A stretch of 32,000 bases of DNA from Candidatus Saccharimonadota bacterium (GTDB taxonomy: Bacteria > Patescibacteriota > Gracilibacteria > Absconditabacterales > Absconditicoccaceae): contig OZ246420.1 in assembly GCA_965231145.1 (NCBI GenBank), positions 120,001 through 152,000 of the forward strand, written 5' to 3'. The notes beneath the pieces are model-generated. The model saw only the letters and a program-made list of their open reading frames with translations, searched no databases and was not told the origin of the DNA. The first letter of the stretch is position 1, and the number at the start of each line of letters is the position of its first letter. Below are positions 1,057 through 31,255 of this stretch, in pieces. The position numbers and the translations under genes are program-made.

Positions 1057-1084
1057 TTGACTTATTTGTCGGATTGTATATAAT
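1057..1084 (+). promoter_or_regulatory. sigma70-type promoter TTGACT-16 nt-TATAAT
   Basis: TTGACT at 1057-1062, a 16-nt spacer, and TATAAT at 1079-1084. This implies a leader of about 140 nt before ATG 1230. Confidence 0.55.
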
Positions 1085-1229
1085 ATAAAAGCGCGTTCCA
1101 TTTCGGTCGAATGCGTGGTTTCTTAACAGCTTACTCTTTCGTTCAAGGTTGCCGGCAAGCTTCCTTGGATAAATTTATGATAAAAAATTTTTCAAACAAA
1201 ACATTCAAAAAAACATTAAATTTGAGAAT

Positions 1230-4200
1230 ATGAAAAAACTACTTATTTTGATGAGCTTTGTTTGCTCATTTTGTGTTCCTGTTTTCGCTCAGTTCGTAAC
1301 GAATGAGATACAGGTTGTTACTAAAGCGCCTATTGTGTGGAATAGTAAAGAACAGTCAGCGGAATTCCTTGAAAAATTTCCTGCGGGTTCTAAGGTTGTT
1401 AACTGTGCTGACATAACATTGTTCAGCCAGCAAGAAGACCTTGTAAGGCAGGGGAGATATTGGGGAACTCTATTTCTTGTTCAACTGCCCACCTCGAACG
1501 CAAGTACACTAGTTTCCACTAAGCAAGCATTGCTTGAAAATGATGAAAGTGTTGTTAAGGACGTCTACTTAAATGTTGTAGGCTCTTCAAACTCGTCTAC
1601 TCCAATTACTTTTTCAGACCCTGTTTTTCCTTATGACATGCAGTATAACGCTGCTGCGATAGCGGGGGGTGTAAAGTACACCGGCTGGCAACATGCTAAC
1701 GGCTATATATTCTATAATACCGATAGAATATTAGTTGGAGTAATAGATGGAGGCGCTAATTTGTCTCACCAGGATGCGGTTAATTCCTATTATATTAATG
1801 CTTTGGAAATAGCGGCAAATGGTATTGATGACGACATGAATGGAAGGATTGATGACGTGAATGGTTGGAATTTTGTTTCTAGTAATAATAATGTTGCTGA
1901 TGACAATCCTATCGGACATGGCACAGTTGTTTCTAGTGAATTGGGCGCTCGTAACAACAATTCAAAGAATACTGTTGGTTACTTGTCAGACTCAATGTCT
2001 GTTTTAGTTCTGAAGGCTGCGAATTCTTCCGGAACTGTTACCGATTTTGCGACAGCGAGTGCGTATTATTATGCATTATCTAAGCATTGCAGGATCGTAA
2101 ATATGTCATTCGGTTTTTCAAGTGTGCCCACAAGCCTAATGGCTGCTATAGCCACAGGTGTTGTAGCGCCTTATAATTGTGTTCCAGTCGCCGCAGTGGG
2201 AAATACGGGCGGTTCTTATACCGCTTACCCCGCGTCTGGGGCTCATGTTCTAACTGTTGGTAATTGCGATAATGGCGGAGTTCGTCATTCTACTTCGAGT
2301 TATTCAACTGAACTTGATATCATGGCTGTTGGGGTTAATGTGGCAGGACATCATCCTACCAGCACAACATTAAACACAACTCTTACTGGTACAAGTCAGG
2401 CTGCTCCTAAAATTGCTGGCGTATGCCATAAAATATTAAAGGCAGATAGTACGCTTACGGTAGATGATGTTATTGATCTTGTGAGATCAAGGGGTTTAAA
2501 TCATGCTTTCCTGCCTATGACAGGCTGGGGACCGTTTAGTGGTTTAGATACTCTTATGCACAATATGATGTCTCCAGACACAGTAGTAACTTTTGCTGCT
2601 TGTTCTGGTAAACAGTGTTTACCTTATAGTAAGCACTTCGCTCCTGTAGATAGTTTAAGGTTTGGATTGGCGGCAATAGCGGGTGATAGTATTAATACTA
2701 ACTTGCTTACCGCTGGCACTTATACTTATAAACTGTCTGTAAAATTTGAACCACGACCAGGCGAGTTCTTTAGGGATACGTTTAACCTTAAAGTTGTTAT
2801 TACTGGTTCTGGTGGCTCTGTCGCTCCAACTATCAGCATAAATGCAACTCCAGGTGGAGCTGTGTGTGCTGGTACATCGGTTAACTTTACCTCAACCATT
2901 ACTGATGGAGGCGCTTCGCCAACATATGTGTGGAAGGTAAATACTGTTACTGTAGGTACTGGAAGTAGTTACTCTTATACACCAGCAAGTGGTGACGTTG
3001 TATATGCGATACTTACAAGTAGCGCAGGATGCGCGTCGCCAGCTACGGTGAACAGTAATACTATAACGATGACAGTGAACCCAAGCGTTACGCCTGGAGT
3101 CACTATTAATGCGACACCTGCCGGAGCAATCTGTGCAGGCACATTAGTTACCTTTAATTCGACTATAGCAAATGGCGGTTCAACGCCATCCTATCAGTGG
3201 AAGAAAAATGGTGTAATAGTTGGTAGTGGTACTACATATACTGACATGACGTTAGCAACTAGTGATATTATCACTTGCAATCTGACAAGCAGTGCTGTTT
3301 GCGCAGTACCAGCTACAGTAGCAAGTAATACCATCACCATGACAGTTAATCCTGTACTGGTGCCTGGGATCACTATCAATGCAACACCTGTCGGAGCAAT
3401 CTGTGCAGGAACATCAGTAACCTTTTCATCTGTCGTAGTTAATGCAGGCTCTTCGCCTGTATACGACTGGAAGGTAAATGGTGTGTCGGTTGGTTCGGGT
3501 ACAAGTTACAGTAGTTCTACTTTGGTAAGTGGTGATCTTGTTACATGTTCATTGGCAAGCAGCGCAACATGTGCGAGCCCATCCAGTGTAACAAGTAACA
3601 CTATTACAATGACAGTGAATCCAAGCGTTACGCCTGGAGTTACTATCAACGCAACGCCTGCTGGTTCTGTTTGCACAGGAACTTCGGTAACGTTTACTCC
3701 AACTATCACTGGCGGAGGATCAACTCCTTCTTACCAATGGTATGTGAATAGCGTTCCCGTAGGTACTGGTACATCTTACTCAAGCTCTAGTTTAGTAACT
3801 GGAGACTTAGTGAGTTGTACACTTGCAAGCAGTGCAGCGTGTGCTACACCGTCTAGTGTCGGTAGCAATACCATTACAATGACAGTTAGCTCATCTGTTA
3901 CTCCTTCTATCATAGTAGCTGCCACTCCTGGCGCTAACGTGTGTACAGGAACTACTGTTACGTTTACTGCGACTCCTTCAGGCGGCGGTTCGACTCCTAC
4001 TTATCAGTGGTATAAGAACTCAATTCCTGTAGGTACAAGTTCAGTAACGTATGTTGATGCTTCTTTGCTTTCAGGAGATGTTATTTCGTGCGAGCTTATT
4101 TCAAGCTTAGCTTGTGTGACAACTTCGACAGCTATGAGTGCAGCAATAACTATGACTGTTAATGCAACAGTCACTCCAGCTGTAGCCGTTGCTGTTTCTC

Positions 4201-5249
4201 CTTCTGCATCTATATGCAGCGGAACATCAGTGACGTTCTCAGCCACACCATCGGCAGGAGGCTCTTCGCCTAGCTACCAATGGTACATAGGAGCAACGCC
4301 TGTTGCTACTGGTAGCACCTTTTCTTCTTCAACTCTTGCAACAGGTGATGCTGTGAAGGTTGTGATGACCAGTAGTGCGGCTTGTGCTTCACCGACTACG
4401 GCTACCAGCGTGATAACCATCATGACTGTTACGCCAAGTGTTGCCCCCTCAGCTACCATTAACGCGACGCCTGGCACAACAATCTGTCCAGGCACTCCCG
4501 TTAGTTTTACTTCCTCTATCACAAACGGAGGCTCTACGCCTACGTACACATGGAAGAAGAATGGTGTTCCTGTTGGAAGTGGCACTACTTATAGCAGCTC
4601 AGCACTCATAAATGGAGATGTTATTGTTCTTACTGTAACTGGTAGTGCTGCGTGTTCAGTACCATCAACAGTTAATAGCAATACAATCACTGTAACGGTT
4701 AATACGCCGGTACCAGTGCCTTCGTTTACTATAAGTGGGACTCCAGTCCTTGTTGGATCTGGTGTTTACAAGGGGATCTATACTGCCACTATACCTAGTG
4801 GCGTATCTACTTATACGTTAGACTGGTACTTAAATGGAGACCTCCAGGCAAGTACTATAACTAATAGTTGGGTTCATGATCCGCTTGTTAGTGGGCATCC
4901 TGACACAGTTTACGCTGTGTTGACGCCTACGAGCGGCTGCTATTCACCAGACACTTTCAAGTCTGGTGCAATTGTTCTAAAGTCTCCCGTTGGCGTTGCC
5001 GCGCTAACGAAAGAGAATGTTAATATATATCCAAATCCAGTACATAATCTTCTTACCATTGAAGGTTTGCATAAAGGCAGCTCCGCTGTCGTTGTAAATG
5101 TTCTTGGGCAGGTGGTGAAAAACTATACGTTTATGAATGACAATTCTGAACAAATAGAATTTACATCGCTTATGCCGGGCATCTATACGTTGCGTATCAT
5201 TGATGAAGAGGGTATGTCGGAGTTGGTATACAAACTAATGAAAGAGTAA
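1230..5249 (+). CDS. secreted subtilisin-like (S8) serine protease with 7+1 Ig-like repeats and a T9SS-type C-terminal sorting domain
   Basis: Uninterrupted 1339-codon ORF with a TAA stop and no in-frame TGA. Signal peptide MKKLLILMSFVCSFCVPVFAQ. Subtilase triad motifs VGVIDGG (Asp), GHGTVVSS (His) and GTSQAAPKIAG (Ser). The C-terminus NIYPNPVHNLLTIEG...GIYTLRII...KLMKE resembles the Por/T9SS tail. Confidence 0.9.
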   Translation: MKKLLILMSFVCSFCVPVFAQFVTNEIQVVTKAPIVWNSKEQSAEFLEKFPAGSKVVNCADITLFSQQEDLVRQGRYWGTLFLVQLPTSNASTLVSTKQALLENDESVVKDVYLNVVGSSNSSTPITFSDPVFPYDMQYNAAAIAGGVKYTGWQHANGYIFYNTDRILVGVIDGGANLSHQDAVNSYYINALEIAANGIDDDMNGRIDDVNGWNFVSSNNNVADDNPIGHGTVVSSELGARNNNSKNTVGYLSDSMSVLVLKAANSSGTVTDFATASAYYYALSKHCRIVNMSFGFSSVPTSLMAAIATGVVAPYNCVPVAAVGNTGGSYTAYPASGAHVLTVGNCDNGGVRHSTSSYSTELDIMAVGVNVAGHHPTSTTLNTTLTGTSQAAPKIAGVCHKILKADSTLTVDDVIDLVRSRGLNHAFLPMTGWGPFSGLDTLMHNMMSPDTVVTFAACSGKQCLPYSKHFAPVDSLRFGLAAIAGDSINTNLLTAGTYTYKLSVKFEPRPGEFFRDTFNLKVVITGSGGSVAPTISINATPGGAVCAGTSVNFTSTITDGGASPTYVWKVNTVTVGTGSSYSYTPASGDVVYAILTSSAGCASPATVNSNTITMTVNPSVTPGVTINATPAGAICAGTLVTFNSTIANGGSTPSYQWKKNGVIVGSGTTYTDMTLATSDIITCNLTSSAVCAVPATVASNTITMTVNPVLVPGITINATPVGAICAGTSVTFSSVVVNAGSSPVYDWKVNGVSVGSGTSYSSSTLVSGDLVTCSLASSATCASPSSVTSNTITMTVNPSVTPGVTINATPAGSVCTGTSVTFTPTITGGGSTPSYQWYVNSVPVGTGTSYSSSSLVTGDLVSCTLASSAACATPSSVGSNTITMTVSSSVTPSIIVAATPGANVCTGTTVTFTATPSGGGSTPTYQWYKNSIPVGTSSVTYVDASLLSGDVISCELISSLACVTTSTAMSAAITMTVNATVTPAVAVAVSPSASICSGTSVTFSATPSAGGSSPSYQWYIGATPVATGSTFSSSTLATGDAVKVVMTSSAACASPTTATSVITIMTVTPSVAPSATINATPGTTICPGTPVSFTSSITNGGSTPTYTWKKNGVPVGSGTTYSSSALINGDVIVLTVTGSAACSVPSTVNSNTITVTVNTPVPVPSFTISGTPVLVGSGVYKGIYTATIPSGVSTYTLDWYLNGDLQASTITNSWVHDPLVSGHPDTVYAVLTPTSGCYSPDTFKSGAIVLKSPVGVAALTKENVNIYPNPVHNLLTIEGLHKGSSAVVVNVLGQVVKNYTFMNDNSEQIEFTSLMPGIYTLRIIDEEGMSELVYKLMKE
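2820..4709 (+). repeat. seven in-frame tandem repeats of about 267-273 nt (about 90 aa), plus a degenerate eighth copy up to about 4985
   Basis: Repeat units start at 2820, 3087, 3354, 3627, 3897, 4170 and 4440. Consensus: VTPgvTINATPaGaiCAGTSVTF.S.i.nGGStPsYqWk.NGv.VGsGt.YsSs.L..GD.v.C.LtSSa.Ca.P..v.SNTITMTVN. Similarity is visible at DNA level, for example 3077-3127 versus 3617-3666. Confidence 0.9.
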
Positions 5250-5270
5250 GCTAATAGAGAAATCTATTGA

Positions 5271-5297
5271 GCGCCCGGTATCTTCCGGGCGCTTTTC
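5271..5297 (+). terminator. rho-independent terminator of the protease gene
   Basis: The arms gcgcccgg and ccgggcgc form a perfect 8-bp stem with loop tatctt, followed by TTTT. Confidence 0.8.
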
Positions 5298-5309
5298 TTA
5301 TTATTCGAA

Positions 5310-5337
5310 TTGTTTTTTAAGGTCGTTTTCTTATACT
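5310..5337 (+). promoter_or_regulatory. possible promoter TTGTTT-16 nt-TATACT
   Basis: The spacer is 16 nt like the other block promoters, but the -35 box is weaker. Confidence 0.3.
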
Positions 5338-5411
5338 GTACAAACGCACAAAGAGAGAAAAAACAAAAATATCGTTAACAAAAATTCCTGAGAAAGGAAA
5401 AAAAATTTATT

Positions 5412-6155
5412 ATGGAAAATAATAGAAGTAGATACAGATTGAGCTTGTTCGTCATTGTAATAATGACGATTATAACAAGCTGTAAAAAGTCTGAACAGTT
5501 TGAGCTGGGGAAAAAAACTGCTGTCCGGCGTGTTCAGACTTTACAGGTGCAAACCCGAGATCAGCAGACCTCGGGCCGAACCTTTCCTATCGATATGCAG
5601 AGTGCTGCCATTTTCAGTCCCATCGAGCTAGTAGCGAAGTCTGATAGCTCAGGGGTGGAGGAAATATTGGTAAATCGTATATTTCAGGATGTGCTCTCTC
5701 AAGGTGAAAAGCTTTGGGGGCGCTACTTTCTGGATGGGCAGTATGCCTATGCCAGTAATATCCGTCGTTATATCGAGAAAAAGTACTCAGTTGTGTGTCA
5801 AAAGTACTTTATATTTGGAGATCTTACAGCTGTTTCACCTCGTTATGGTTGTGTCGCATCATGGAAATATGATGTAGCATGTGCCATCCGAGGTAAAGGG
5901 GGTGTTTTATACATTCTTGATCCGAGGCTCTTCTCCAGTGTGGTTACACAAAACAAATGGATAGAATCTCACCTCTATCCAACTGCTAGTGTACCACAGC
6001 CACGTCTGACTTCTCAGGCGTTGGTAGCTGGCGAATCTTTTACGCCTGTCGACAATGTGCCTTCCGGATATCTTGTAGATGCGGATTATCGCTATACGGA
6101 TATCATGGTAGATTACTATGCTGACAGCGTAGGCTGTAATAATATTCTTCAATAA
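5412..6155 (+). CDS. lipoprotein, protein-glutaminase-like fold with a substituted catalytic triad (likely pseudoenzyme)
   Basis: The signal ends ...IMTIITSC, a lipobox-like Cys24. The segment DGQYAYASNIRRY...KYFIFGDL...CVASWKYDVA...YILDPRLFSS aligns from memory to Chryseobacterium protein-glutaminase DGCYARAHKMRQI...KQFVYGNL...CVAWSYHVA...RIIDPSLFSS. Compared with that enzyme, Cys is replaced by Gln (5739-5741), His by Asp (5871-5873), and Asp is kept (5919-5921). TAA stop, no TGA. Confidence 0.6.
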   Translation: MENNRSRYRLSLFVIVIMTIITSCKKSEQFELGKKTAVRRVQTLQVQTRDQQTSGRTFPIDMQSAAIFSPIELVAKSDSSGVEEILVNRIFQDVLSQGEKLWGRYFLDGQYAYASNIRRYIEKKYSVVCQKYFIFGDLTAVSPRYGCVASWKYDVACAIRGKGGVLYILDPRLFSSVVTQNKWIESHLYPTASVPQPRLTSQALVAGESFTPVDNVPSGYLVDADYRYTDIMVDYYADSVGCNNILQ

Positions 6156-6177
6156 GATAGATTCATCTCTTTGTGCT

Positions 6178-6215
6178 GGGATCTCGTGTTTTCACGGGGT
6201 CCCTTTATTTTATTT
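6178..6215 (+). terminator. rho-independent terminator
   Basis: An 11-bp stem gggatctcgtg / cacggggtccc (with G-U pairs) and loop tttt, followed by a T-rich tract. Confidence 0.7.
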
Positions 6216-6219: not shown

Positions 6220-6358
6220 TTGCATTTAGCATATATATTGTTATTATAAAGGCGTTGAAAGTTGTCCGAGGTGAGATACGAGACAAAAGACAACATGTAT
6301 TCCATAATAAATTATTAACGATATTCTAAGGGATCTGTTTTGTACAGGACCCTTTTTT
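6220..6358 (+). ncRNA. candidate small transcription unit (promoter + about 105 nt + terminator) with no plausible ORF
   Basis: TTGCAT 6220-6225, a 16-nt spacer, and TATTAT 6242-6247. There is an internal hairpin gttgtc...gacaac. The terminator agggatctg/caggaccct plus T5 at 6329-6358 closely resembles the preceding terminator. Confidence 0.25.
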
Positions 6359-6554
6359 GTATTTGTAATTTATTTGAGCTTGTCTATATTTTCTGAAGTG
6401 ATGAATTTATAGTCGCGTCACCGGAGAGATTTTTCTAGTGATGCAATTTATAAGAGTTGACCTGTTCTCAGGCTGGCTCTTTTTTCTTTTTCTGTTCTTT
6501 CTCACTTTTTTTCGTGGAGATAATAAATAAGTAGGCGGCATTTATTTCCAATGT

Positions 6555-7144: not shown

Positions 7145-8248
7145 ATGAAAAAATTATTGTACACACTTTTGACGTTCTATAAGTTCGTCGACATACAAGA
7201 CCCTGAGAAAGAGGTAAAGGACCATCTCGCTTTTTGTAAAGACGTCGGTCTGAAAGGCCGTATATATATTGGTGAGGAAGGTATCAGCGCAACACTCACC
7301 GGAAATGATGGACAAATCAAAGCGTATAGGATGTATTTGAATAATAATCCTTATTTTAAAGATATTCCAGATATTGATATTAAAGCGACTCGTGTAGATG
7401 ACTACTATTTTGATCGTATGATTGTGAAGTATCGTAAAGAGATCGTAGCGCTTGGAACTACTGTAACACAAGCCGAAATTGAGGAGTATCGCAAGGAAAT
7501 GTCGGCTGAAGATTTCAAAAAGCTTATTGACTCCGGAGACCTTGAGGACTGGGTGATTATCGACATGCGTAATGACTATGAGTATAAGCTCGGACATTTT
7601 AAGAATGCTATTCCTGCGGGAACTATTAATTTTCGTGAAGTGCCAGACTTGCTTGATAAGTACAAGCAGCTTTTTGGTGAGAAGAAAATTATCTGGTATT
7701 GTACTGGAGGAATCCGTTGCGAAAAGCTTTCTGCTATGGTGTCTAAGGCATGATTCAAAGATGTGTATGCACTCGAGTGAGGTGTTGTGAAGTATGTAAA
7801 TAGTTATAATGACGGTAACTGGCTGGGTAATCTTTACACGTTCGATGGGCGTGTATCGACTCGTGTTGGTGACGATGAAACACATACAACCATTGGTGAG
7901 TGTATCTATTCTGGTATGAAAACGGATAACTGCGAGAATTGCCGCTATAGTCCTTGTAATGCACGCATTATCTGTCGCAAGAAACAGTATAAGCGCCACA
8001 TGGGTTTCTGCTCTCAGGAGTGTTATGAGAATGCGAAGAAGGATCTCCTTATCAAAAATATCGCAGGTGATGAGTTTGATTATCAAGCAATTCGTGATAG
8101 CATTAAAAAGATCGCTGATGAAAACGGAGACAAGGATGCTATAGAAGCGTTGCGTCAGCAGGTAGTGAAGCATCTTGAGGATGAGCTCGGTGTTGTGAAA
8201 TTTAATCACGCTGTCAGTCAAAAAGAGACAGTTATTTTCCAAGATTAA
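7145..8248 (+). CDS. trhO: tRNA uridine(34) hydroxylase TrhO (rhodanese-domain UPF0176/YceA family)
   Basis: ORFs 7145..7753 and 7787..8248 join through TGA at 7751-7753 and 7778-7780. The segment [21 protein letters not shown](G)FKDVYALE(G)GVVKY parallels E. coli YceA [36 protein letters not shown]. A Cys-rich C-terminal tail follows. Confidence 0.85.
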
Positions 8249-8332
8249 CATACATTTTCTAGTCACAATTAGTTCGTTGTTTCGTATACTTTAGTGTCTA
8301 CATTAAGGCAATTTTACTATGCTTATTATTAC

Positions 8333-9484: not shown

Positions 9485-9545
9485 AGTGATTGCTAACAAC
9501 GCCCAGATAGTTATAATTTACTTAGTTTAATTTTGTGGCATAAAA

Positions 9546-15283: not shown

Positions 15284-15436
15284 CACAAAATAACTGTAAG
15301 TCATCTTATCTTTATAGTAGCAAAATCTGCTGTCAACATATCGCATGTCATTTTACGTTTTCTTAGGCTAACGGAAAGTTTGCGGAAAGTGATATGCATT
15401 GGTTGATTTTTGAAGTCGATTGTGTATAAGCTAGGT

Positions 15437-16919: not shown

Positions 16920-16989
16920 ATTGCAAAAATCAATTTTTATAAATAGTTTACGAAGGTTACTATCCTTGTATTAACAAAAATACTCATTG

Positions 16990-17015: not shown

Positions 17016-17022
17016 CTTTTAC

Positions 17023-17046
17023 AAAAAAACCTCCGGATGCCGGAGG
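17023..17046 (-). terminator. rho-independent terminator of the 17065..17934 gene
   Basis: The arms cctccgg and ccggagg, with A7 on the plus strand, which is a T-run on the minus strand. Confidence 0.7.
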
Positions 17047-17064
17047 TTAAAGTGTTTCGAATGC

Positions 17065-17934: not shown

Positions 17935-17986
17935 TTTAGTATAATTGTTTTTTAGGTGTTTGTTAATGATCTTGTTGACAATAGTC

Positions 17987-18014
17987 ATTGTAATTCGTTC
18001 CTATCTAATGTCAA
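17987..18014 (-). promoter_or_regulatory. promoter TTGACA-16 nt-TACAAT (minus strand)
   Basis: The -35 box is at 18009-18014 and the -10 box at 17987-17992. Confidence 0.5.
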
Positions 18015-18072
18015 CCCTGCTTATCGCAGTTTTATCTGGTTTTTTATGGGGAGAATCGCTATAAGCGAGGGT

Positions 18073-21666: not shown

Positions 21667-21685
21667 AGTATTGTATTTTAGTTTT

Positions 21686-22318
21686 TTAGTTTGTGAGTTT
21701 GAATTCGATAATAGATCTTTCTACAATAGGCCTAAATGAACCTATGCCGGCATCTTTTTGTTCAGCCATGAAAGCAAGAAATAAATCAGCGTCTGTCATG
21801 AGTTCATACATGGTATGTGCGTATGTCCCTGGCTTTGGCATGGTCTTCAGAAGCTCTTTGTAGAGCTGTAAACCTTTGTTCATCGCCTCAATCCCTTCTT
21901 CATAAGGGATGCCCACAACTGGAATAGCTCCATCTGCGGCCATATATATTTGTTCGCTGCAGCCATGAGACTCGCCGATGAAAACTATCAGGGCTGGTTT
22001 AGCCGCCTTGACGATATTTTCACCGATAAGCCGCGAAATAAGTGAGTCAGGCTCATCTTTTGTCTCTGCGATAGCATTTGCAGGAGCATCTATATACACT
22101 TCCATGTAGTCATGTATGGAACGGCTTTTGTCTGCTAATACATACGACCATACAGCAATAGAAATATATTTATCTATGTACAGACCTGCTGCATTTATAA
22201 TGCATACATTTTCTGTAGAGAGGAGTGTTGTGATGGCTCGCATGAAGGTAAGCTTTTCATTTTCCGTCATGCTCTTTGATAGTGATCCGAGGATCATTAA
22301 TCTGATTTTTCCGTTCAT
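21686..22318 (-). CDS. Rossmann-like protein with YpsA/LOG/DprA (SLOG)-like motif order, paralogue 2 of 3
   Basis: RLMILGSL...VCIINAAGLYIDKYISIAVWSYVL...ALIVFIGESHGCSEQIY...AIPVVGIP. TAA stop. There is a 19-nt gap to paralogue 1. Confidence 0.4.
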   Translation of the reverse strand: MNGKIRLMILGSLSKSMTENEKLTFMRAITTLLSTENVCIINAAGLYIDKYISIAVWSYVLADKSRSIHDYMEVYIDAPANAIAETKDEPDSLISRLIGENIVKAAKPALIVFIGESHGCSEQIYMAADGAIPVVGIPYEEGIEAMNKGLQLYKELLKTMPKPGTYAHTMYELMTDADLFLAFMAEQKDAGIGSFRPIVERSIIEFKLTN

Positions 22319-22394: not shown

Positions 22395-23345
22395 TTAGAA
22401 AATTTTGTCGTATATCATAAGAGCTTGTTGTGCGATTTTCTTTAGCTCTTCTGGTGCAGAGATAAAGACATTTTCACCGTGTGCTCTATAAGCATTAAGC
22501 CCAGAAGTTTCAAATTCTACAGAGTCGTCGTAAAAAGTGATAATAGTAAATCAGTCTTTTTTACTCACAGAGATTTGATCTTTTACGTGTTCAAAAAATG
22601 CATCATCTGTTTTATTCTCTTTAAAAAGCTTGGTTGTTCTTAGTAAGAGTGACTGTGCATAGTCACTGAACATGCCGAATTCTCCTGTGAATAGATTGAT
22701 GCCGGTTTTATTGAGTTTGTCTGTTTTAAAATAAAATAGTTTATCTCCAACATGTACAAACGTTCCTTTTTGTTCCACAAGGCTTTCGGTAAACGTTTTT
22801 AGAGCAGTATCTGTGCAATACCCTGCATTTAATAGGTATTCAAAAGTATAAGAAAAAACTTGTTTTATATGAGGAGGGAGGGTTTGATAGTTTGCTTCTT
22901 TTAGATAGGTCTTTATACGATGTGATTTTATCTCATTTTTCTCCCCCCAATCAAAATCCTTTCAAAAACTAAAATGATATAGTTTCTCAAAATGATGTTC
23001 GGGGATATGTTCTATGATGCTCATATAGAGACCATTTTTAACTTCAGTGATCAGAAAATCAGGATTGTTTATAAGGAGCTTTTGGAGTCTTTGTAATACT
23101 GTATCTGTTTGGATGCGAAAAAATTTATAATTATATTTTTCCTTTCGTAGATCGGAGCATTTCGTTGTATTCAAGACTAGATCTGTATCCGCCGCAAGAT
23201 CTGCATCTGAGGGGTATTCACTACCAAAAAAAATATCGTTCCCTTCCAGAAGGGCCGCTACATCACATTGTATTTTATTTTCAGGCTCCTTTGTTTCTTC
23301 TTCGAGAGGAGAGCTTCCTAATACGTCCATAATGTGGGCAAACAT
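22395..23345 (-). CDS. hypothetical protein (code 25)
   Basis: Track ORFs 22962..23381 and 22551..22778 are in one frame, joined through TGA 22962-22964 and 22551-22553, ending at TAA 22395-22397. ATG 23345 is the chosen start (a TTG at 23381 is possible). No homology recognised. Confidence 0.5.
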
Positions 23346-23622
23346 AAAAACTGATTTTATCTTTATATTTGTATATGTCAATAAAACTGTGAAGACAGAT
23401 GATAAGATTTTTTCTTAGTTTTGTCGGTTTTTTTCGTGAAAGAGAAAAGTAGAAGATGATTGTTTTTTAAGGGTGAAATTGAATGATATTTATTCTGCTC
23501 CCTTAGTTCAATAAAAAACACCGAAATATGATAACTCTTGGTGGGCGAGAATAAACTAGATTTGGTTGATGTTGTATGATAGTGCGACAATAATAAGCTG
23601 TTTTATCTTATTAATAAATAAT

Positions 23623-25404
23623 ATGAATTCCTTAGAGCTACAGAAAAAACATGCAAAAATTTATGAAACTTTCTTTACAAATAATTCTATTGTAGTCTCT
23701 GCTCCTTTTTTGATTAATCGATCTGGAGACTTACATCCGGATTTTAGTGGTGTAAGTATAAAACAAAAGTTGCCCTTACGTTTGTATATATGAATTCATC
23801 AGAATAGCTTATGAGAGAATAAAATATGACAAACATTCTCGTATGATTACCAAGATGATGTTTTTGAAAAATATGAAGGAGAAAACTATGCTGCTTATGG
23901 AATGCTATTGCTGCAAGAGATAAATAAAAAAATTCCAAAAGATTTATGAGGAATTACAATTAATATTTTAACAGAAGTCCCTAGGACTCTTTGACTTTGA
24001 TATAACTCTATACTTTCTCTTTGCCTTAGTGTGATAATTACATTTTTGAACGATAAAGAGTCGTTTCATGAAATACTTTCCTTACCTAAGGCTCATATTC
24101 AAAATTCACTAGAAAATAGTAAGACACTTAATAAGTTGATTTCGACTTCTATGGAGCTTGATGCTGTTATTAATGGTAAGATGTGAGTCTCACTTAAGAT
24201 TTCAAGTTTCTTTGATGGATATTATCCAACAGTTTCTTTTAAAGATAGGTCTGAACATATTATTCAATATAAGGATTTGTCAAATGTGGGTTTCTATGGA
24301 TTAAGGATGAATGAAATACGAGAGCATTTACAAGATGTATCTTTCCCTTTTGACTTTTGAATTATTATTTCTGATAAGCCTATTTTAAGAGAAAATTTAA
24401 AAAATATAGATCATGTGTCGAATATATCTATAGAGGAAAAAAAACATTTAAAATCGGTTTTTGATAAAATAATTCCCAAGAATAAGGCGTCGGCGGAAAG
24501 GGGACCCAAATTTTATCATTTTCTTGATGGTTTAAAAGATAATGTATATAGTGCTTATGGTTTAATGATGTGAGCTATAAGTATAGAAACACTAAATATT
24601 TTTGGTAAAATTCTTTCTTCTTATTATAATCATGACGTTCTTTGAAGTTTCTTATCTACTATTAATAAAATCAGATATGGAAATAATATAGTTAGAAGAT
24701 CTTCTCACGATTTTTTATGATTTATAGACAGTTTTTTGTCTATTATTAATCTTCCTTCTTCTGAATTTGCGGTTTTCCCGAATGACACGCTAATTATGTG
24801 ATGAACACTGACTTATGCTTCGTCATCAGTAAAAAATAGAAATGTAGTTACTTCTTCGATAGAAAAAATTAAGACCTCTCATTCTTGAGCTGGAATATTG
24901 TATTCTAATTTTTCCGATGGAATAGCCCATAAAGGGCTTATTATAGAGCAGTATATAGGTAATGAAGTTTTTTCTAAACACTTCATTGGCAATTCGTGGG
25001 AGCTACAGGATTATACTGGAAAAAGAACGATAGGAGACTTTAACTGCTTGGTTAATAAGGAAGAATATGATCTTATACTGGATGTGTTTAATGGGAAGAT
25101 TTATCATAAAGGCCAAAAACTTACTTCTCAAGATTTGAGTTCGCAATCTACTACGATAGAGCTTGTTAAATTGCTTTTCTCTTCTCCAACTAAAGAAATA
25201 TTGAATAAGGATATGTCGTCTTCTAGTTATTCAAAAAATAAAAATGAAATGACTAGCAAAATTATTGTCCCTCTTGAGAGATGGGTGAAAGACACTATAG
25301 GAAAGGATTGCATTATTAAAGCCTCTGGCTCTCTCTCAGAATATTCTATCTATATCAAATATAATAGCTTGAGGATTGCTTTTTTAGATAAAAAGAAATT
25401 GTAA
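23623..25404 (+). CDS. GHMP-kinase-like domain fused to a C-terminal OmpR/PhoB-type winged-helix domain
   Basis: All codons 23791-24900 were read by hand: 14 TGA-Gly and no TAA/TAG. The GHMP motifs are VVSAPFLINRSGDL, EVPRTL(G)L(G)YNSILSL (the PxGSGLGSS-like motif) and IM(G)(G)TLTYA. The C-terminus LDVFNGKIYHKGQKLTSQDL..IELVKLL....IIVPLERWVKDTIG..IIKASGSL.EYSIYI follows the Trans_reg_C pattern. Confidence 0.55.
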
Positions 25405-25517
25405 ATTCTTATTTTTTCCATTTTTTTCTCTAAACATAAAAATATCTTTTCGGAGAACTTTTATAGTGGTTTCTTAGAATAAGTATCAAATATTTTATTT
25501 GTTCATTAATTTTTTTA

Positions 25518-26210
25518 ATGAATACGCTTACCATAGGTTTTGAATGATTACATAGATCTTGAAAGGGCACTCAGATGGAGCTTCTAAAAAATCACCTCAA
25601 TAATAAACTTATAGAAACTATTTCTATTAGGTGAGAATATTATAGAAAATGAAATTGAAATTGAGATTTTTTTGATCCCTATTCTAAACGATGGCAAAAT
25701 AATTGGAATAATGACGAAATTAATTTTGAAAAATCTCAGAGAATAAATAGAGAAATCAAGATTTTATTCGATAAGATTTTGCCGGCTCTTTCTGAAAAAA
25801 CATGAATAAAAGACTTTGCGGTTTTATTCGATAGAACAGTTGTTTCTAGATATTTTATAGATTCTTTATCTCAAGAAAATGTTTCATTTCAACACATAAA
25901 ACACATTTATACGAAATCTTGAAAGTTAATTGAGAAAATTGTGCCAGATATAATATTTATATTTAAGTGTAATAAAAATGTTTTGTTAAAGAGATTGTTT
26001 TTTGATAAACTTTCTGAAGAGGATTTAATCTATAAAAGACATATTATTTCTATGTTTACAGATAGATTTAATAAGTGTATTGAGGGTGATATGCCTGATG
26101 AGTTAAAAACAAGAATGGTCGTGATTGATGGGAATGCTAGTCCTATTGATATTCACCAAGAGATTATTCAACATTTAAATCCATATATCAATGCATGCAT
26201 ATGACAGTAG
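25518..26210 (+). CDS. thymidylate kinase-like P-loop nucleotide kinase
   Basis: 9 TGA-Gly. P-loop IGFE(G)LHRS(G)KGTQ, a DR-motif-like VLFDRTVVSRYF, and PDIIFIFK. It ends at ..INACI(G)Q TAG 26208-26210. Confidence 0.5.
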
Positions 26211-27388
26211 TGAGTATTAAAGATTTAGATGCAATAAGAGCCATAGAAAGCTATCTTAAGTGATGTGTGAGTTTCGCCATTCCTAAATTTATAACTAGAA
26301 ATATTGCAGTTTTGGTAATGAAATCTAATAGTTTGAAGGTTGCTTGTAAGGAAATTTATTTTTATTTAACTAGCGTGGCACAACAGGGTATAGTAAAAAA
26401 TGCAAATCTGTTATGAAATATAAACAAGATTTTTTTAGACATTGGTGTTGTTAAGTGATTATGGGAGTCTGCACATAATATAGATTATGCTAAGTTAGCT
26501 TTAGAAAAAAAAGCTTTATTGGGAGAGGAGCGAAATGATAAATATGAGCTTTCTCAAAATAAAAATAGATGATTAACAGATCTTTTAAGAAGCTGAATTT
26601 CTATTAAAATAAATGTAAGTACATTAAAAGATATTCAAAAAAAGCCTTCTTGTATAGCGGTTCCATTGATTGAATACTATAGCAATTATAGATTACTACA
26701 AATAAATAATTTCTCCCATTCGAAGCTTTCGCACCTTGTCCATGATTTATTTGATCATCTATATTTTTTCTCAGAGTTAGACAAAGAACAATTCTTTTCA
26801 TTATCTTCATCTTTTTGGTGTAAGGTTGGCAATCCTCAAGAAAGAGATGTTTTTTCTAGAGAGTCTGAGCTGATAGCCTCTATTGCGTATGAACGAAGGT
26901 ATTACTTGCAAAATCAGGAGAAGTTTAATTTATGTTTAAATAATGCTCATATAAGCGCTATGGTGAGCAAAGCTTTTTGAGCCATTAAGAATGAATATAT
27001 TGATAAAATTGAATATATAACTAGAAAGAACATAAGTGTTTATCATATATATTATAATGTCATATGTGAATTATATGAGCAGATTAGAAAAGTTGGGGCA
27101 ATAAAATTAATTAACGATAAATGAGAGTTCGAGGGAGATATAACAATGATGCTAAAAAATGATTATTTAAAAGTGATTATAGATGTGTTATATTTTATTG
27201 CTCACAAAGAAACACAGCTAAAGAAGATGTTATTGAAGATATATTCCTATATAGAATCTTTGATTTATAATAGCTTGAATAGTAGCCTAATAGAATATAA
27301 TTTAGTTATAAATCTGAGTATGCTAAAAACTCATTCCATAAGAAGGACCAAGCATGTTGCTAATTTGAAAAACTTCTTTAATTTATAA
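26201..27388 (+). CDS. hypothetical protein (395 aa, code 25)
   Basis: ATG 26201 overlaps the end of the previous gene (ATGACAGTAG). Track ORFs 26666.. and 27146.. are in the same frame. 7 TGA-Gly. It contains HLVHDLFDH. No family recognised. Confidence 0.5.
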
Positions 27389-27399
27389 ATCCATTACCT

Positions 27400-27984
27400 A
27401 TGAAAATAGAATATGAAGCTAAATTTTTATCTATTAATTTAACTGCTATTCGTAAGGCTTTTAAAGCTATAGGAGCTCATTGTGTTCATCAGAAATTGCT
27501 AATGAAGAGGGTTTTATTTGATCATCCTACCCTTGATAATGCTTTCATTAGAATTAGAGATGAAGGTAATCTTATTACGATGACATGAAAGCACATCGTT
27601 GATTATGAAAAAGTTGATGGCACGAAAGAAGTTGAACTTGAAGTAAATGATTTTAACAATGCAAAAGCCTTTATTAATTTTCTTTGAATCAAAACTAGAT
27701 CCTACCAGGAGACTTATAGAGAAATTCGACAACTGAATGATATAGTCTTCGCTATAGATGAGTGGCCTGGTATAGAACCATTTCTTGAGGTTGAGGGTGC
27801 TAGCGAAGATATAGTAAAATGAATTGCTGAAAAACTCTGACTAGATTTTAATAATGCTTATTTTTGAGCAGTAGATCTTATTTATGAAAAAGTGCTTTGA
27901 ATTTCAAAGAGTGATTTTAACAACTTAAAGTTGATTACTTTTGATAATCCTCCTTATAGGTGAATGGATGTTTATTCCGTTTAA
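27400..27984 (+). CDS. CYTH-domain protein (class IV adenylate cyclase / triphosphatase fold)
   Basis: The N-terminal EYEAKFL matches the ExExK signature. Further motifs: IRIRDEG..ITMT(G)K and IDEWPGIEPFLEVEG. 7 TGA-Gly. TAA at 27982-27984. Confidence 0.65.
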
Positions 27985-28024
27985 TATTAAGTTTGTACAA
28001 TGTAATTTATTCTTACTATACGAG

Positions 28025-28567
28025 ATGTCTAGATGAAATATAACATTAGTAATAAAGGATGAATATTTGCTGTTTTCTGATAGATTACAAGAAATGCATA
28101 GGGAAAAAGAAGAGATTGCTCAATTGTGAAGAGATGCGAATTTGCAATGAAGTGAAACCTTTGGACATGATAATCCTATTCTTGAATCTAAGCATGAAAA
28201 GTCTATGCTGCTGTCTATGCAAAGATCGAAATTTGCTGAAATAGAGAGGCACTTGTCGACATGTCTTATCACTACTGAAGAAGAGATTTCAAAAAGAAAA
28301 CAAAGTGAATTAATAGAATTTGGTAAAATCTCTATAGATGTTTGATCAATCGTCAAATTGAAAATAGCGGACTCGCTTCAAGAGAGCGAATTTCTTATAA
28401 CGGGACTTACCCAAGGAACAAAAATAACTTTTATGTGAAAAAAATATTTAACCATATGTGCGACCTCTCCAATACGAGCATGAATAAATTGAAAATACGC
28501 GGGGGAGGAGGGATTTTTCTTTCATGATTGAAAAAAGAAGTTAATATCAATTATAGATGTAAAATAA
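28025..28567 (+). CDS. greA: GreA/GreB-family transcript cleavage factor-like protein
   Basis: 7 TGA-Gly. A coiled-coil N-terminus (..RLQEMHREKEEIAQL(G)RDANLQ(G)SETFGHDNP..). The C-terminal FKBP-like part IEFGKISIDV(G)SIVKL...ICATSPIRA(G)IN(G)KYAGEE parallels SPIARALIGK. Confidence 0.6.
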
Positions 28568-28666: not shown

Positions 28667-28984
28667 TTAGTCTTCAGGAAGTTCGGTTACTTTTTCGCCT
28701 TCTTCCAGAATTTTGTTGTACAGTTCTTCAGCGATCTCTTTTGAGCCTTCGGCGTGTGCCTGGTCTTTGTCGTCATACATGTTTTTATCGTCTAAATCTT
28801 TTGGGAAGTAGACGCAGGCAACACTTTTTTCCGACAGTTCAGGTATTTCACCGGAAATGCAGAGGATGGCGTCATCCGTTTGTTCCTTTTGTAGAATGCC
28901 GAACTCTTTGTAAAGAGGACTGTCTGTCGGGATTCGCACGAAATAACAAGTGGCGAATAATTGTTGGATATTATTTATATGCAT
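28667..28984 (-). CDS. small acidic cytoplasmic protein, unknown function
   Basis: The start was set at ATG 28984 (MHINNIQQLF..). 105 aa with an Asp/Glu-rich C-terminal half. TAA stop. Confidence 0.5.
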   Translation of the reverse strand: MHINNIQQLFATCYFVRIPTDSPLYKEFGILQKEQTDDAILCISGEIPELSEKSVACVYFPKDLDDKNMYDDKDQAHAEGSKEIAEELYNKILEEGEKVTELPED

Positions 28985-29004
28985 ATAGATGTGTTTAGGT
29001 TTCA

Positions 29005-29032
29005 ATATTACTACTGAGAGAGTGTAAGTCAA
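29005..29032 (-). promoter_or_regulatory. promoter TTGACT-16 nt-TAATAT (minus strand)
   Basis: The -35 box is at 29027-29032 and the -10 box at 29005-29010. Confidence 0.5.
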
Positions 29033-29050
29033 TATCTCCTTTTTTGTATA

Positions 29051-29073
29051 AAAAAACTGCTGAGGATCAGCAG
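29051..29073 (-). terminator. rho-independent terminator
   Basis: A6 followed by the arms ctgctga and tcagcag with loop gga. Confidence 0.7.
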
Positions 29074-29092
29074 TGAATAGAATGGGATTGTG

Positions 29093-29758
29093 CTATGTTG
29101 TGATAAGTTGAGATTGTCCTGCGAGGCGGATCCGCTCGTCCAGGTTAAATACGCCCTGTATCCAGGTGGTAACAGTTGCTTTAAAGTAGGAGATAAATTT
29201 TTGCCCAATCGTGTCGAGATAACCTTTGAGCTCCAGTAGTTGTATGCATTGTTCATAATTAGAAGCCGCGGGTAGAGAGCCTTCTAGCATCTGTGATATG
29301 CCCATGTTCAAGTGGTCCTGTAATACTTTGCTTGATACATAGTTTCCAAGTGTGCCGTTGCGTGGGAAACTAATACTGATGATGTGGGGTTGTTGCCAGA
29401 GGAATCTGGTAGTCGGATCTATGTCCCCTAACGCAATCATTAATTGTGGATGATGCAGAGCAAAATCATTTAATTTTTCTTGAGATATGAAATGTCTGCT
29501 TCTGCGTCCCGGTAAGGTTTTGTGGGTGTGTAGTGTTCCGATGTTCGCGCAAATATCTTCGCGTTTCCTTCTTTGTTGCATCGCTGCTTCCATAACAGCC
29601 ATCCTGATATACGCATCGAGATGTTGTCCACAAACGTTGATGATTTTAATGCGTCTGTTCTCCAGGATGTGCATTAGCCATTTCGTCAGACGAGTGACTT
29701 GTTCAATGTTGAGCGGTTCGTTGAGTCGGCCGCTTAATACGAGTGCTATTTGTGCCAT
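29093..29758 (-). CDS. Rossmann-like protein with YpsA/LOG/DprA (SLOG)-like motif order, paralogue 3 of 3
   Basis: The start was set at ATG 29758 (MAQIALVLSGR), downstream of its own promoter. Motifs: IKIINVCGQHLDAYIRMAVMEAAM...QLMIALGDIDPTTRFLW...HIISISFP. TAG stop. Confidence 0.4.
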   Translation of the reverse strand: MAQIALVLSGRLNEPLNIEQVTRLTKWLMHILENRRIKIINVCGQHLDAYIRMAVMEAAMQQRRKREDICANIGTLHTHKTLPGRRSRHFISQEKLNDFALHHPQLMIALGDIDPTTRFLWQQPHIISISFPRNGTLGNYVSSKVLQDHLNMGISQMLEGSLPAASNYEQCIQLLELKGYLDTIGQKFISYFKATVTTWIQGVFNLDERIRLAGQSQLITT

Positions 29759-29787
29759 AAGCGCGAATTTTGTTTGGGTGAAATGTA

Positions 29788-29815
29788 ATTGTATCCATTG
29801 AAAGGTATATTTCAA
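29788..29815 (-). promoter_or_regulatory. promoter TTGAAA-16 nt-TACAAT (minus strand)
   Basis: The -35 box is at 29810-29815 and the -10 box at 29788-29793. Confidence 0.45.
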
Positions 29816-29830
29816 TATTCTTTCACTATA

Positions 29831-29854
29831 AAAAAAGCCCCCGAATCCGGGGGC
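29831..29854 (-). terminator. rho-independent terminator
   Basis: A6 followed by the arms gcccccg and cgggggc. It starts 3 nt after the TGA stop of the 29858..30292 gene. Confidence 0.75.
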
Positions 29855-29857
29855 AAA

Positions 29858-30292
29858 TCATTCGTTAGTGTCTTCTGGTTTTTTCTCTTTTCTCTTGTCA
29901 GGGTCAAATATCTTGTCGAGTTTATCCACGCTTAGTTGGCGATGGAGAAATTTACTTACTCTCTCGGCTGGAACTCTCATGTTGAGGTGGATTCCTGTTA
30001 TGATCCCAAAGCCAATACAGTAGATCAGAAAAGGAATCATTTCGGGCTCACCCCAGGCTATGAGTCCTATGAAGCCATTTATGCAGATGATGCCAAATGC
30101 CCATAGTAACCATAAGTCAGCTTTCTCTTTCTTATCACGCACAGCATCTGTTATAAAGTATGCTATGAGGATATTAAACAAGAAGCCAAATTTACATATG
30201 GTTGGATCAAATAGTTCATATGGAACTTCATAATAGATGATAAGATTAAATACCACCAGGAGAACTATGGATATAAGGTCTTTGAGTCCCAT
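29858..30292 (-). CDS. small integral membrane protein (4 TM) with a Lys/Asp-rich C-terminal tail
   Basis: 144 aa with four hydrophobic segments. It ends in TGA 29858-29860. It overlaps the upstream gene by 28 nt. Confidence 0.6.
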   Translation of the reverse strand: MGLKDLISIVLLVVFNLIIYYEVPYELFDPTICKFGFLFNILIAYFITDAVRDKKEKADLWLLWAFGIICINGFIGLIAWGEPEMIPFLIYCIGFGIITGIHLNMRVPAERVSKFLHRQLSVDKLDKIFDPDKRKEKKPEDTNE

Positions 30293-30681
30293 GCTGTTTT
30301 GTTTAGGTAGTGAGCAAATCTTTGTTTTATTTCCCTTGTTGTTTTGATGTGCTGGCGTATCTCAGTTATAAGATAGCCGATGAATACTTCTGTTGCATAG
30401 GCGCAGAGAGTGACGTCGAGCTTATGTGCTACCAGGCCGGCCGTTATGAACATGCCTAAGCAGAACAGAAGAAAGAATACGGCCATGAGTATGAAGCCGG
30501 TTTCTTTTTCTTTCCGTGAGAGATATGCAGCAGAACCGACGATAACTATGCCGTTTTGTATGATGCCCCACCAGAGCTGTAGTGGATCGGTTGGGTCAAG
30601 CATAATGTGTTCGTCGCTTATTGCCAATGCAGGCAAGCAACACAGGAGCAGTATGCTCAAAAGTAGTGTAGTCTTTTTCAT
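30265..30681 (-). CDS. small membrane protein (signal peptide + 3 TM)
   Basis: The start was set at ATG 30681 (MKKTTLLLSILLLCCLPALA). TAG stop. Confidence 0.6.
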   Translation of the reverse strand: MKKTTLLLSILLLCCLPALAISDEHIMLDPTDPLQLWWGIIQNGIVIVGSAAYLSRKEKETGFILMAVFFLLFCLGMFITAGLVAHKLDVTLCAYATEVFIGYLITEIRQHIKTTREIKQRFAHYLNKTAWDSKTLYP

Positions 30682-30710
30682 GATATTTTTCTTTTGGTTT
30701 GATGCTGCAA

Positions 30711-30738
30711 ATGATACGCGCATGCTATGCAATGTCAA
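30711..30738 (-). promoter_or_regulatory. promoter TTGACA-16 nt-TATCAT (minus strand)
   Basis: The -35 box is at 30733-30738 and the -10 box at 30711-30716. Confidence 0.5.
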
Positions 30739-30764
30739 TAGTTCTCTTACATACATTCACTTAT

Positions 30765-30795
30765 AAAAAAAGTCTGCCTGAGATTCAGGTAGACT
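30765..30795 (-). terminator. rho-independent terminator
   Basis: A7 followed by an 11-bp stem agtctgcctga / tcaggtagact (one G-U pair) with loop gat. Confidence 0.75.
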
Positions 30796-30831
30796 TCGTG
30801 TTTCGTATGAGGCTCTGAGTTTATTTTTCTT

Positions 30832-31203
30832 CTATGCTGTTGGGCCTGCGGCTCTTTTGTAGAGCCAGCACAGAAAGACCCCCACAGCTATTTCTAATAG
30901 GTAAACAATAGAACCAATAAGAAGGCTATGGATGCCTGCCATGTTTAGGCCTATTAGCGCTGCAATTATTAAGCCTAAGATAAGGCTTGACGTGTTAGAC
31001 GGCATGAGATCCCAGAGAAAGGAACATCCTATGAGTAGCACGCCGATAGTGATAACAGCTATCATATGAGCTTGGTGGTCCAAACCTGCATGAAATATAA
31101 CCTTGCCGAGATAGTGGACTGACAAGCCAAATGCTAGTACTGTTAGGCAAATGTATAAAAGCTCTGTAAGTTTTGTGCTGTTCTTTTTGGTAGATGTGTT
31201 CAT
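30832..31203 (-). CDS. small integral membrane protein (4 TM)
   Basis: 123 aa with four hydrophobic segments. TAG stop. Confidence 0.6.
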   Translation of the reverse strand: MNTSTKKNSTKLTELLYICLTVLAFGLSVHYLGKVIFHAGLDHQAHMIAVITIGVLLIGCSFLWDLMPSNTSSLILGLIIAALIGLNMAGIHSLLIGSIVYLLEIAVGVFLCWLYKRAAGPTA

Positions 31204-31227
31204 TTTTCTTTGTTTTTGTGTATTATG

Positions 31228-31255
31228 ATTATATTCGGAGATTTGTGTAAGTCAA
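31228..31255 (-). promoter_or_regulatory. promoter TTGACT-16 nt-TATAAT (minus strand)
   Basis: The -35 box is at 31250-31255 and the -10 box at 31228-31233. Confidence 0.55.

Follow-up and report, generated by a model that had tools for sequence, protein, structure and literature searches.

Why should one class of genes in a bacterial genome be packaged in regular, self-contained cassettes when its neighbours are not? The question is raised by a stretch of 32,000 nucleotides (nt) from contig OZ246420.1, positions 120,001 to 152,000, which we refer to as the window. Here, a backbone of genes that use TGA within their reading frames (with trhO, hflX, folD, rnhB and alaS among the flanks) alternates with four blocks, A to D, that are free of in-frame TGA. 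An initial annotation had described the block genes as uniform single-gene modules, each with a promoter of 16-nt spacer, a short leader lacking a Shine-Dalgarno (SD) sequence and a hairpin terminator, and had offered as explanations a donor with very canonical sigma70 signals, selection for autonomous expression or an engineered origin. We find that this regular architecture is real and concentrated in the TGA-free blocks (promoters p=0.001, terminators p=0.003), and that its signals belong to the lineage itself.

Across most of the window, open reading frames (ORFs) are short under the standard code and become long once TGA is read through, with 4-14 in-frame TGAs. Since orthologs have glycine at 141 of 205 positions aligned with TGA and tryptophan at only one, TGA is read as glycine (code 25). 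In reverse complement, the window forms part of the 76-kb Logan contig ERR4405439_61. Identical copies of its block proteins occur in two sequencing runs and also on an independently assembled NCBI contig of 1,107,293 bp. Relatives retrieved via the VirD4-like protein are labelled Patescibacteria, Gracilibacteria or Peribacteria. The window comes from a genome of about 1.1 Mb, 45.6 kb of which were read, of a Gracilibacteria-like member of the Patescibacteria, or Candidate Phyla Radiation (CPR). Loci used for comparison are numbered with the prefix L.

Promoter matches were scored as the number of positions out of 12 that agree with TTGACA-N16-TATAAT. All 12 sites listed in the initial annotation indeed have a 16-nt spacer when checked base by base, with one start moved from 16037 to 16038. 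Two sites had been missed: 23381 on the minus strand (11/12), upstream of a gene containing 2 TGA, and 9490 on the plus strand (10/12), upstream of one containing 6. The window contains seven 11/12 matches at spacer 16, compared with 0.45±0.65 expected from 200 dinucleotide shuffles, none of which reached seven, and zero at spacers 14, 15, 17 and 18. Matches of at least 10/12 at spacer 16 precede 8/10 block units (0.31 expected), with at most one at any other spacer. A chance origin of the promoters is excluded by the shuffles and by the other spacer lengths, which serve as internal control. Alignment of 24 pooled sites resulted in the motif TTGAC(A/T)-N16-TA(a/t)AAT, located 20-30 nt upstream of the ATG in most cases and without a consistently present extended -10 TG. 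The near-consensus hexamers occur above chance, in the right position and orientation, and are conserved at orthologous loci, as is characteristic of sigma-70-type promoters. An excess of 11/12 matches at spacer 13 was rejected as a signal; it is attributed to composition, because all of these matches fall in the AT-rich stretch at 24-28.6 kb and none lies upstream of a gene start.

To compare the two gene classes, we counted promoters within 180 nt upstream of transcription units. A spacer-16 match of at least 10/12 was found for 8/10 block units and for 2/16 backbone units (Fisher p=0.001). The proposal that comparable boxes are missing in front of trhO, hflX, sigma, folD, virD4, GHMP and alaS holds, as the best scores there reach just 8-9/12. 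A hairpin with a T-run marks the end of 10/10 block units (stems of 8-13 bp, dG of -10 to -21 kcal/mol) and follows 10 of the 12 block genes versus 6 of the 22 backbone genes (p=0.003), in agreement with the earlier statement that nearly every block gene has its own. Two terminator scans returned 25 and 24 candidates against 10.2 and 8.7 expected, and intrinsic terminators were also seen at six backbone unit ends. The uniformity of the modules stands only in part: eight of the ten units are monocistronic, but C1-C2 and D2-D3 are bicistronic and the A2 promoter is weak (8/12). Similarly, the leaders are mostly as short as described (20-30 nt), but those of A1, A2 and B3 measure about 145, 74 and 52 nt. 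Leader composition differs clearly, with A 0.55 and T 0.21 in block genes versus A 0.31 and T 0.43 in backbone genes (p = 3e-5). The lack of SD sequences is not specific to the blocks and is typical of this lineage; for SR1 and Peribacter, a scarcity of SD sequences and the lack of a conserved CCUCC anti-SD are documented (PMC10783764).

The same promoter type is used outside the blocks. Two sites that had been taken for block-gene promoters, 6220 and 15403, drive conserved non-coding RNAs (ncRNAs) of the backbone. The ncRNA after rnhB is present in five genomes, namely the window and, at 80-85% identity, L003, L004, L010 and L012; its aligned promoters read TTGATT, TTGTAA and TTGAAA, each followed by -16-TATAAG, in the window, L003 and L004, and 3 of its 45 predicted pairs covary. 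The promoter of the 6220 unit is kept in L009-L012 (e.g. L011 10793, L012 1692), its terminator is conserved, and it has no conserved ORF. As the conserved promoter drives about 100 nt ending in a conserved terminator, this unit resembles a small RNA rather than a block gene. A search of the whole window against Rfam (E≤1) gave no match at the ncRNA, the small RNA or the A1 leader. The backbone gene hyp369 has in L010 an ortholog with TTGACT-16-TATAAT (11/12) and 6 TGA among 28 glycine codons. That this promoter type is not confined to TGA-free genes is also shown by hyp316, which has 2 TGA and an 11/12 promoter. In a distant Gracilibacteria locus (L006), a gene in which 26 of 30 glycine codons are TGA is preceded by TTGACA-16-TATAAA, with a leader of 22 nt. 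In 127 kb of sequence from relatives, too, spacer 16 forms the largest class. These results show that the grammar of promoter, leader and terminator is the lineage's own and neither imported nor engineered.

Block A is syntenic in L009-L012, present as a fragment in L003 and TGA-free in all of them. Ortholog identity is 85-51% for A2 (84-45% by BLAST) and 66-32% for A1. The A1 promoter and its structured leader are conserved in L010 (+5644, 11/12) and L011 (+6261, 12/12), though A1 is just 63% and 32% identical there. Compensatory changes at 10 of 20 predicted pairs across three genomes make the leader a candidate cis-regulatory RNA. The A2 terminator is conserved in L009 and L010, and the A1-A2 intergenic region, which holds the weak A2 site, is 84% identical in L009. 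A1 has an N-terminal signal peptide and a C-terminal Por_Secre_tail domain (PF18962, E=4e-9; also in the L010 and L011 orthologs), as found in cargo of the type IX secretion system (T9SS), and the named relatives of its S8 domain are Bacteroidota. All A1 orthologs retain the Gln(+1) that follows the signal peptide as well as YPNP in the tail, and the A2 orthologs retain a C-x-K-x-(D/E) lipoprotein N-terminus; we take these motifs to be tied to Bacteroidota sorting. The closest A1 relatives from outside, L013 and L014 (48-49% identity; one labelled Bacteroidetes), have neither TTGACA-16-TATAAT nor the leader. A2 identity is 73% in L010 versus 52% in L012, with trhO, hflX, sufS and folD about equally distant (62-90%). 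This discordance between block A and the backbone, compared for L009, L010 and L012 against the window, suggests allelic replacement or accelerated evolution.

None of the 235 glycine codons in block genes is TGA, compared with 121 of 621 in the backbone. Conserved glycine columns switch between TGA and GGN in 0/238 cases in block A and in 131/621 (21%) in backbone orthologs (P about 3e-25), and the A1 orthologs have 0/128, 0/96 and 0/94 glycine codons as TGA. Because block A is old, diverged and TGA-free everywhere, without a single switch, the absence of TGA is maintained by selection and is not a relic of recent import. TGA appears in these genes solely at the very end, at -4 codons in B2, at -6 in C2 and directly before the terminator in D3. 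A backup stop follows 4 codons later in B2 and 6 codons later in C2; D3 has no in-frame TAA or TAG before its terminator, so that under code 25 TGA would have to terminate for its message to have any stop codon. The TGA-free genes of relatives all end directly in TAA or TAG. General translational codon optimisation was rejected as a cause, as block genes show no stronger bias in the other codon families.

A strong promoter and freedom from TGA can each occur without the other. Strong promoters coexist with TGA codons in hyp369, hyp316 and the L006 gene. Conversely, gene E, a TGA-free lipoprotein between alaS and a LytR-family gene (L008, outside the window, at 33452-34678 on the plus strand in window numbering; 19474-20742 in L004), has a leader rich in T, preceded not by a canonical promoter but by a conserved TGcATAAT, and none of its 26 and 33 glycine codons is TGA at 50% identity. 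The class-specific traits of the blocks are short units of one or two genes, A-rich leaders and the strict absence of in-frame TGA. Our literature search found neither T9SS-tailed nor chromosomal TGA-free genes described for Gracilibacteria.

The block units come and go. Block B begins about 20 nt after the ncRNA terminator. L003 lacks it and has about 54 bp between this terminator and the next gene; B1 lies in the part inserted relative to L003. In L004 and L012, F-ATPase genes occupy the block-B position. Furthermore, L012 gained a whole promoter-leader-ORF-terminator unit between sufS and folD. The earlier suggestion of selection for autonomous expression fits this presence/absence evidence. 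In L004, an analogous TGA-free gene with TTGACA-16-TAAAAT adjoins alaS, and a 12/12 site precedes a small membrane protein. A search for flanking direct or inverted repeats, att sites and target-site duplications around the units gave just short A/T-rich matches. Each unit has its own promoter and the units share no imperfect inverted repeats, which distinguishes them from integron gene cassettes. Duplication of promoter and leader was considered from the 12-mer shared by D1 and D5 and a likeness of the B1 and B2 leaders, and rejected: away from the hexamers, identity does not exceed 0.44, compared with a null 95th percentile of 0.46 in shuffled controls. The 12-mer itself (GTGTAAGTCAAT) was confirmed at 29022 and 31245, and the 9-mer copy reported at the edge of block B is present, at 15295 and not 15294. 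Blocks B, C and D are orphans, without a donor among 5.8 billion proteins.

Table 1. Predicted features of the window (spacer lengths in nt between the -35 and -10 hexamers; scores out of 12 as defined in the text; dG in kcal/mol).
Feature	Position	Strand	Description
Block A	1230-6155		TGA-free
A1 promoter	1057-1084	+	TTGACT-16-TATAAT, 11/12
A1 5′ leader	1085-1229	+	long, conserved; two hairpins and invariant TTAACAG
A1	1230-5249	+	S8 peptidase, PKD/Ig repeats, T9SS C-terminal sorting domain (Pfam); 0 TGA, 116 GGN glycine codons
A1 terminator	5268-5295	+	11-bp stem, dG -21.1
A2 promoter-like site	5310-5337	+	TTGTTT-16-TATACT, 8/12, weak
A2	5412-6155	+	Gln_deamidase_2 lipoprotein (Pfam), 0 TGA
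A2 terminator	6177-6204	+	12-bp stem, dG -19.4
Conserved small non-coding unit	6220-6358	+	promoter TTGCAT-16-TATTAT 6220-6247; RNA of about 100 nt; hairpin and T-run 6330-6358; between A2 and hyp151
hyp369 promoter	9490-9517	+	TTGCTA-16-TATAAT, 10/12, 28 nt to ATG; backbone gene with 6 TGA
Backbone ncRNA gene	15403-15590	+	promoter TTGATT-16-TATAAG 15403-15430; rod-like RNA of about 155 nt (15432-15590), T-run end
Block B	about 15594-18059		TGA-free
Module B1	15615-16019	+	promoter TTGACT-16-TATCAT 15615-15642; 25-nt A-rich leader; terminator 15995-16019
B1 ORF	15668-15994	+	108-aa membrane protein, 0 TGA
Module B2	16038-17012	+	promoter TTGACA-16-TATTAT 16038-16065; 26-nt A-rich leader; terminator 16988-17012
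B2 ORF	16092-16865	+	secreted, signal peptide ...VSA/Q, i.e. Gln(+1); ends in TGA, TAA 4 codons later
Module B3	18014-17027	-	promoter TTGACA-16-TACAAT 18014-17987; terminator 17049-17027
B3 ORF	17934-17065	-	289 aa, 0 TGA; 289-aa form recorded at NCBI
Block C	21070-22318		TGA-free
Module C	22376-21026	-	bicistronic; promoter TTGACA-16-TAAAAT 22376-22349; 30-nt A-rich leader; terminator 21050-21026
C1	22318-21686	-	first ORF of module C
C2	21666-21070	-	second ORF of module C; ends in TGA, backup stop 6 codons later
hyp316 promoter	23381-23354	-	TTGACA-16-TAAAAT, 11/12; accessory gene with 2 TGA
Block D	28667-31203		TGA-free
Module D5	29032-28624	-	promoter TTGACT-16-TAATAT 29032-29005; 20-nt leader; ORF 28984-28667
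D5 terminator	28646-28624	-	perfect 10-bp stem
Module D4	29815-29056	-	promoter TTGAAA-16-TACAAT 29815-29788; 29-nt leader; ORF 29758-29093
D4 terminator	29074-29056	-	perfect 8-bp stem
Module D2-D3	30738-29836	-	bicistronic, overlapping ORFs; promoter TTGACA-16-TATCAT 30738-30711
D2	30681-30265	-	
D3	30292-29858	-	ends in TGA; terminator 29855-29836 begins 2 nt after
Module D1	31255-30769	-	promoter TTGACT-16-TATAAT 31255-31228; 24-nt A-rich leader; terminator 30797-30769
D1 ORF	31203-30832	-	123-aa membrane protein

We consider it probable that native sigma-70-type promoters and intrinsic terminators insulate accessory genes that were acquired individually or evolve fast, in a moron-like manner. 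TTGAC(A/T)-N16-TA(a/t)AAT would be the housekeeping promoter of the lineage, with a preferred spacer of 16 bp. RNA polymerase would start a few bases past the -10 box, giving a short, A-rich and unstructured leader that may be translated without a Shine-Dalgarno sequence, and a GC-rich hairpin with a U-tract would end each transcript. Accessory units would be gained, lost or replaced singly in intergenic slots between conserved operons. The apparent concentration of the signals in the blocks would follow from the make-up of these as mosaics of short accessory units of one or two genes; gained one at a time, each unit carries its own near-consensus promoter and terminator. The terminator might also shield neighbouring housekeeping operons, with backbone genes residing in longer units with weaker -35 boxes. 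Insulation and autonomous expression as the rationale for this packaging are what we infer from the arrangement of the units.

Several points weigh against this explanation. Every promoter and terminator described here is a prediction. Most backbone units have no recognisable promoter (best 7-9/12), so that the native consensus rests on few conserved backbone cases, and the spacer-16 enrichment in relatives is modest, with 6 sites versus 2.1 expected and a shuffle maximum of 7. Codon bias in block genes is if anything lower than in the backbone, which leaves high expression unsupported. Finally, the coincidence of near-consensus promoters, A-rich leaders and TGA avoidance is left unaccounted for.

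This coincidence would be expected if the block genes were simply the most strongly expressed ones, with promoters, leaders, terminators and the avoidance of UGA, as a codon read slowly or with errors, all scaling with expression. We regard this as possible, though clearly less probable than insulation of accessory genes by native signals. Strong promoters and A-rich leaders do co-occur with TGA-free ORFs, the ATP-synthase genes of L004 are TGA-poor (0-1 TGA), and TGA is tolerated solely in the last few codons of block genes. However, the codon usage of other amino-acid families is not more biased, and block genes use more CGG, AGG and CCC. The L010 ortholog of hyp369 combines an 11/12 promoter with its six TGA codons, and gene E is TGA-free in two genomes without a canonical promoter and with a T-rich leader.

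Alternatively, the cassettes could be dual-code, or "bilingual", i.e. under pressure to stay readable with TGA as a stop. The genes might be shared with, or expressed by, a partner that uses the standard code, either a Bacteroidota-like host or phages compatible with code 11. Or else they might be needed when UGA decoding is disabled, e.g. on infection by a standard-code phage. With a promoter and a terminator of its own, each gene would be self-sufficient. We think this unlikely, despite several observations in its favour. Selection on TGA-freeness is evident in the switched glycine columns, TGA is confined to gene ends and stands in D3 just 2 nt before the terminator, and the A-rich leaders differ from those of the backbone. 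The T9SS domain, the Gln(+1) signal peptides and the lipoprotein N-terminus are conserved in the A1 and A2 orthologs, and the divergence of A2 is discordant at similar backbone identity. In addition, TGA-free phages with backup stops are documented and targeted by these lineages (PMC10746230). On the other hand, the promoter type is that of the recoded bacterium and not that of Bacteroidota, which argues against simple expression from a host RNA polymerase. The one match in phage and defence libraries was that of C1 to ThsA/STALD, and it was marginal; the units are not flanked by mobility repeats, the TGA-free genes of relatives all end in TAA or TAG, and no mechanism of delivery to a host is known. 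That gene products, genes or transcripts act in or pass through a standard-code partner, most plausibly a Bacteroidota-like host of this episymbiont with whose secretion signals and A-rich start-site context they would agree, or that the genes stay translatable during a shutdown of UGA decoding, e.g. by standard-code phages, with the packaging as a self-contained expression unit, appears doubtful to us. It is equally doubtful that the packaging with promoter and terminator is, on this account, more than a side effect of piecemeal gene gain.

Import of whole cassettes from a standard-code donor with textbook sigma-70 signals, as proposed in the initial annotation, appears very improbable. It would agree with the TGA-free block genes, three of which end in TGA, with their somewhat higher GC content (0.42-0.45), with the Bacteroidota-type domains of A1 and A2, and with the named relatives being Bacteroidota. 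It is unsupported, because the same 16-nt-spacer promoter serves the backbone ncRNA in five genomes, hyp369 and the TGA-rich L006 gene. Bacteroidota are the only donors indicated. Their promoters consist of TAnnTTTG at -7 and TTTG at -33. In the window, TAnnTTTG is found in 2/12 block upstream regions, which is about chance (0.54 per kb per strand), and the outside relatives L013 and L014 lack TTGACA-16-TATAAT. Moreover, no donor for blocks B, C and D turned up among 5.8 billion proteins, and block A is of old standing, with synteny kept throughout the clade. An engineered construct or an assembly chimera, which the regularity of the parts and the alternation of the blocks with recoded DNA might bring to mind, can be dismissed, as the block proteins recur in independent data, diverged orthologous cassettes (block A in four other genomes) are found in metagenome-assembled genomes from unrelated samples, and no two promoter spacers, leaders or hairpins have the same sequence, without the identical re-use of parts seen in synthetic constructs.

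The units resemble several known systems in part. Like sigma-70 promoters and Rho-independent terminators elsewhere, they have a TTGACA-like -35 box, a TAnnAT -10 box and a GC-rich hairpin with a T-run after the stop; the consensus spacer in E. coli is 17 bp, whereas the window prefers 16 bp, exclusively so at the 11/12 level. With phage morons they share autonomous units of one or two genes with their own promoter and terminator, presence/absence polymorphism and deviating composition. However, they do not lie in a prophage (no PHROG matches for 10 block proteins), their neighbours are housekeeping genes, and block A is stably inherited across the whole clade. Code-11-compatible phages predicted to infect Gracilibacteria/Absconditabacteria are TGA-free with backup stops (Liu et al., mBio 2023, PMC10746230), whereas integrated prophages were found to be TGA-rich (PMC10746230). 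The blocks are similar to the former in their lack of in-frame TGA and in the backup TAA/TAG that B2 and C2, though not D3, possess, but differ in being chromosomal, non-phage, vertically inherited and under native promoters. SD-independent A-rich leaders, the Por_Secre_tail of A1 and Gln(+1) in the A1 orthologs and B2 recall Bacteroidota, in contrast to the absence of TAnnTTTG above chance and the surrounding recoded CPR genome. Finally, block B is reminiscent of islands at the 3′ end of small RNA genes, with variable content at the junction, but there is no integrase and no direct-repeat att site, and the RNA is neither a tRNA nor a tmRNA.

Together, TTGACA-16-TAnnAT, an SD-less leader of about 25 nt and intrinsic terminators amount to a first comparative description of promoter grammar in a UGA-recoded CPR lineage. 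It can serve annotation as well as the construction of genetic tools for organisms that do not yet grow in isolation. With an artefact or engineered origin ruled out, the regularity of the cassettes marks a real gene class, accessory genes from which selection has excluded the reassigned codon for long periods of evolution. The nature of this selection is the puzzle that is left. A long-standing question, how a changed genetic code affects gene flow and host-parasite interaction, is thereby made testable.

Ten small block proteins had no matches in Pfam, PHROGs or PADLOC besides a marginal match of C1 to the SLOG/STALD domain of ThsA (E=0.009). In homology searches C1 is otherwise an orphan. 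For C2, the corresponding position in L003 holds a TGA-free homolog of 26% identity. The two module C proteins are weakly paralogous to each other (21% identity, E=4e-5). D4 had appeared by eye to be a further paralog, which BLAST did not support.

A few observations concern the surroundings of the units. A scan for tRNAs and tmRNA in the window found none. Downstream of the 6220 unit, at about 6440-6500, a second conserved hairpin (GGCCTGTTCTCAGGCTG) is followed by a T-rich tract. Antisense to trhO, an ORF of 370 codons at 7154-8266 on the minus strand is free of stops and of TGA; it is probably spurious, since it has no family match and an odd composition. At the block-B position, relatives have an antiporter-like gene and F-type ATP synthase genes with 0-3 TGA (L004 3762-9061; L012 10438-11514), and the ATP-synthase operon of L004 stops after the alpha subunit. 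Between blocks C and D, the stretch 22395-28567 has a low GC content (0.27-0.35), L003 and L004 lack counterparts of its genes, and TGA makes up 50% of its glycine codons (54/109). It looks like a compositionally distinct variable region of code-25 type.

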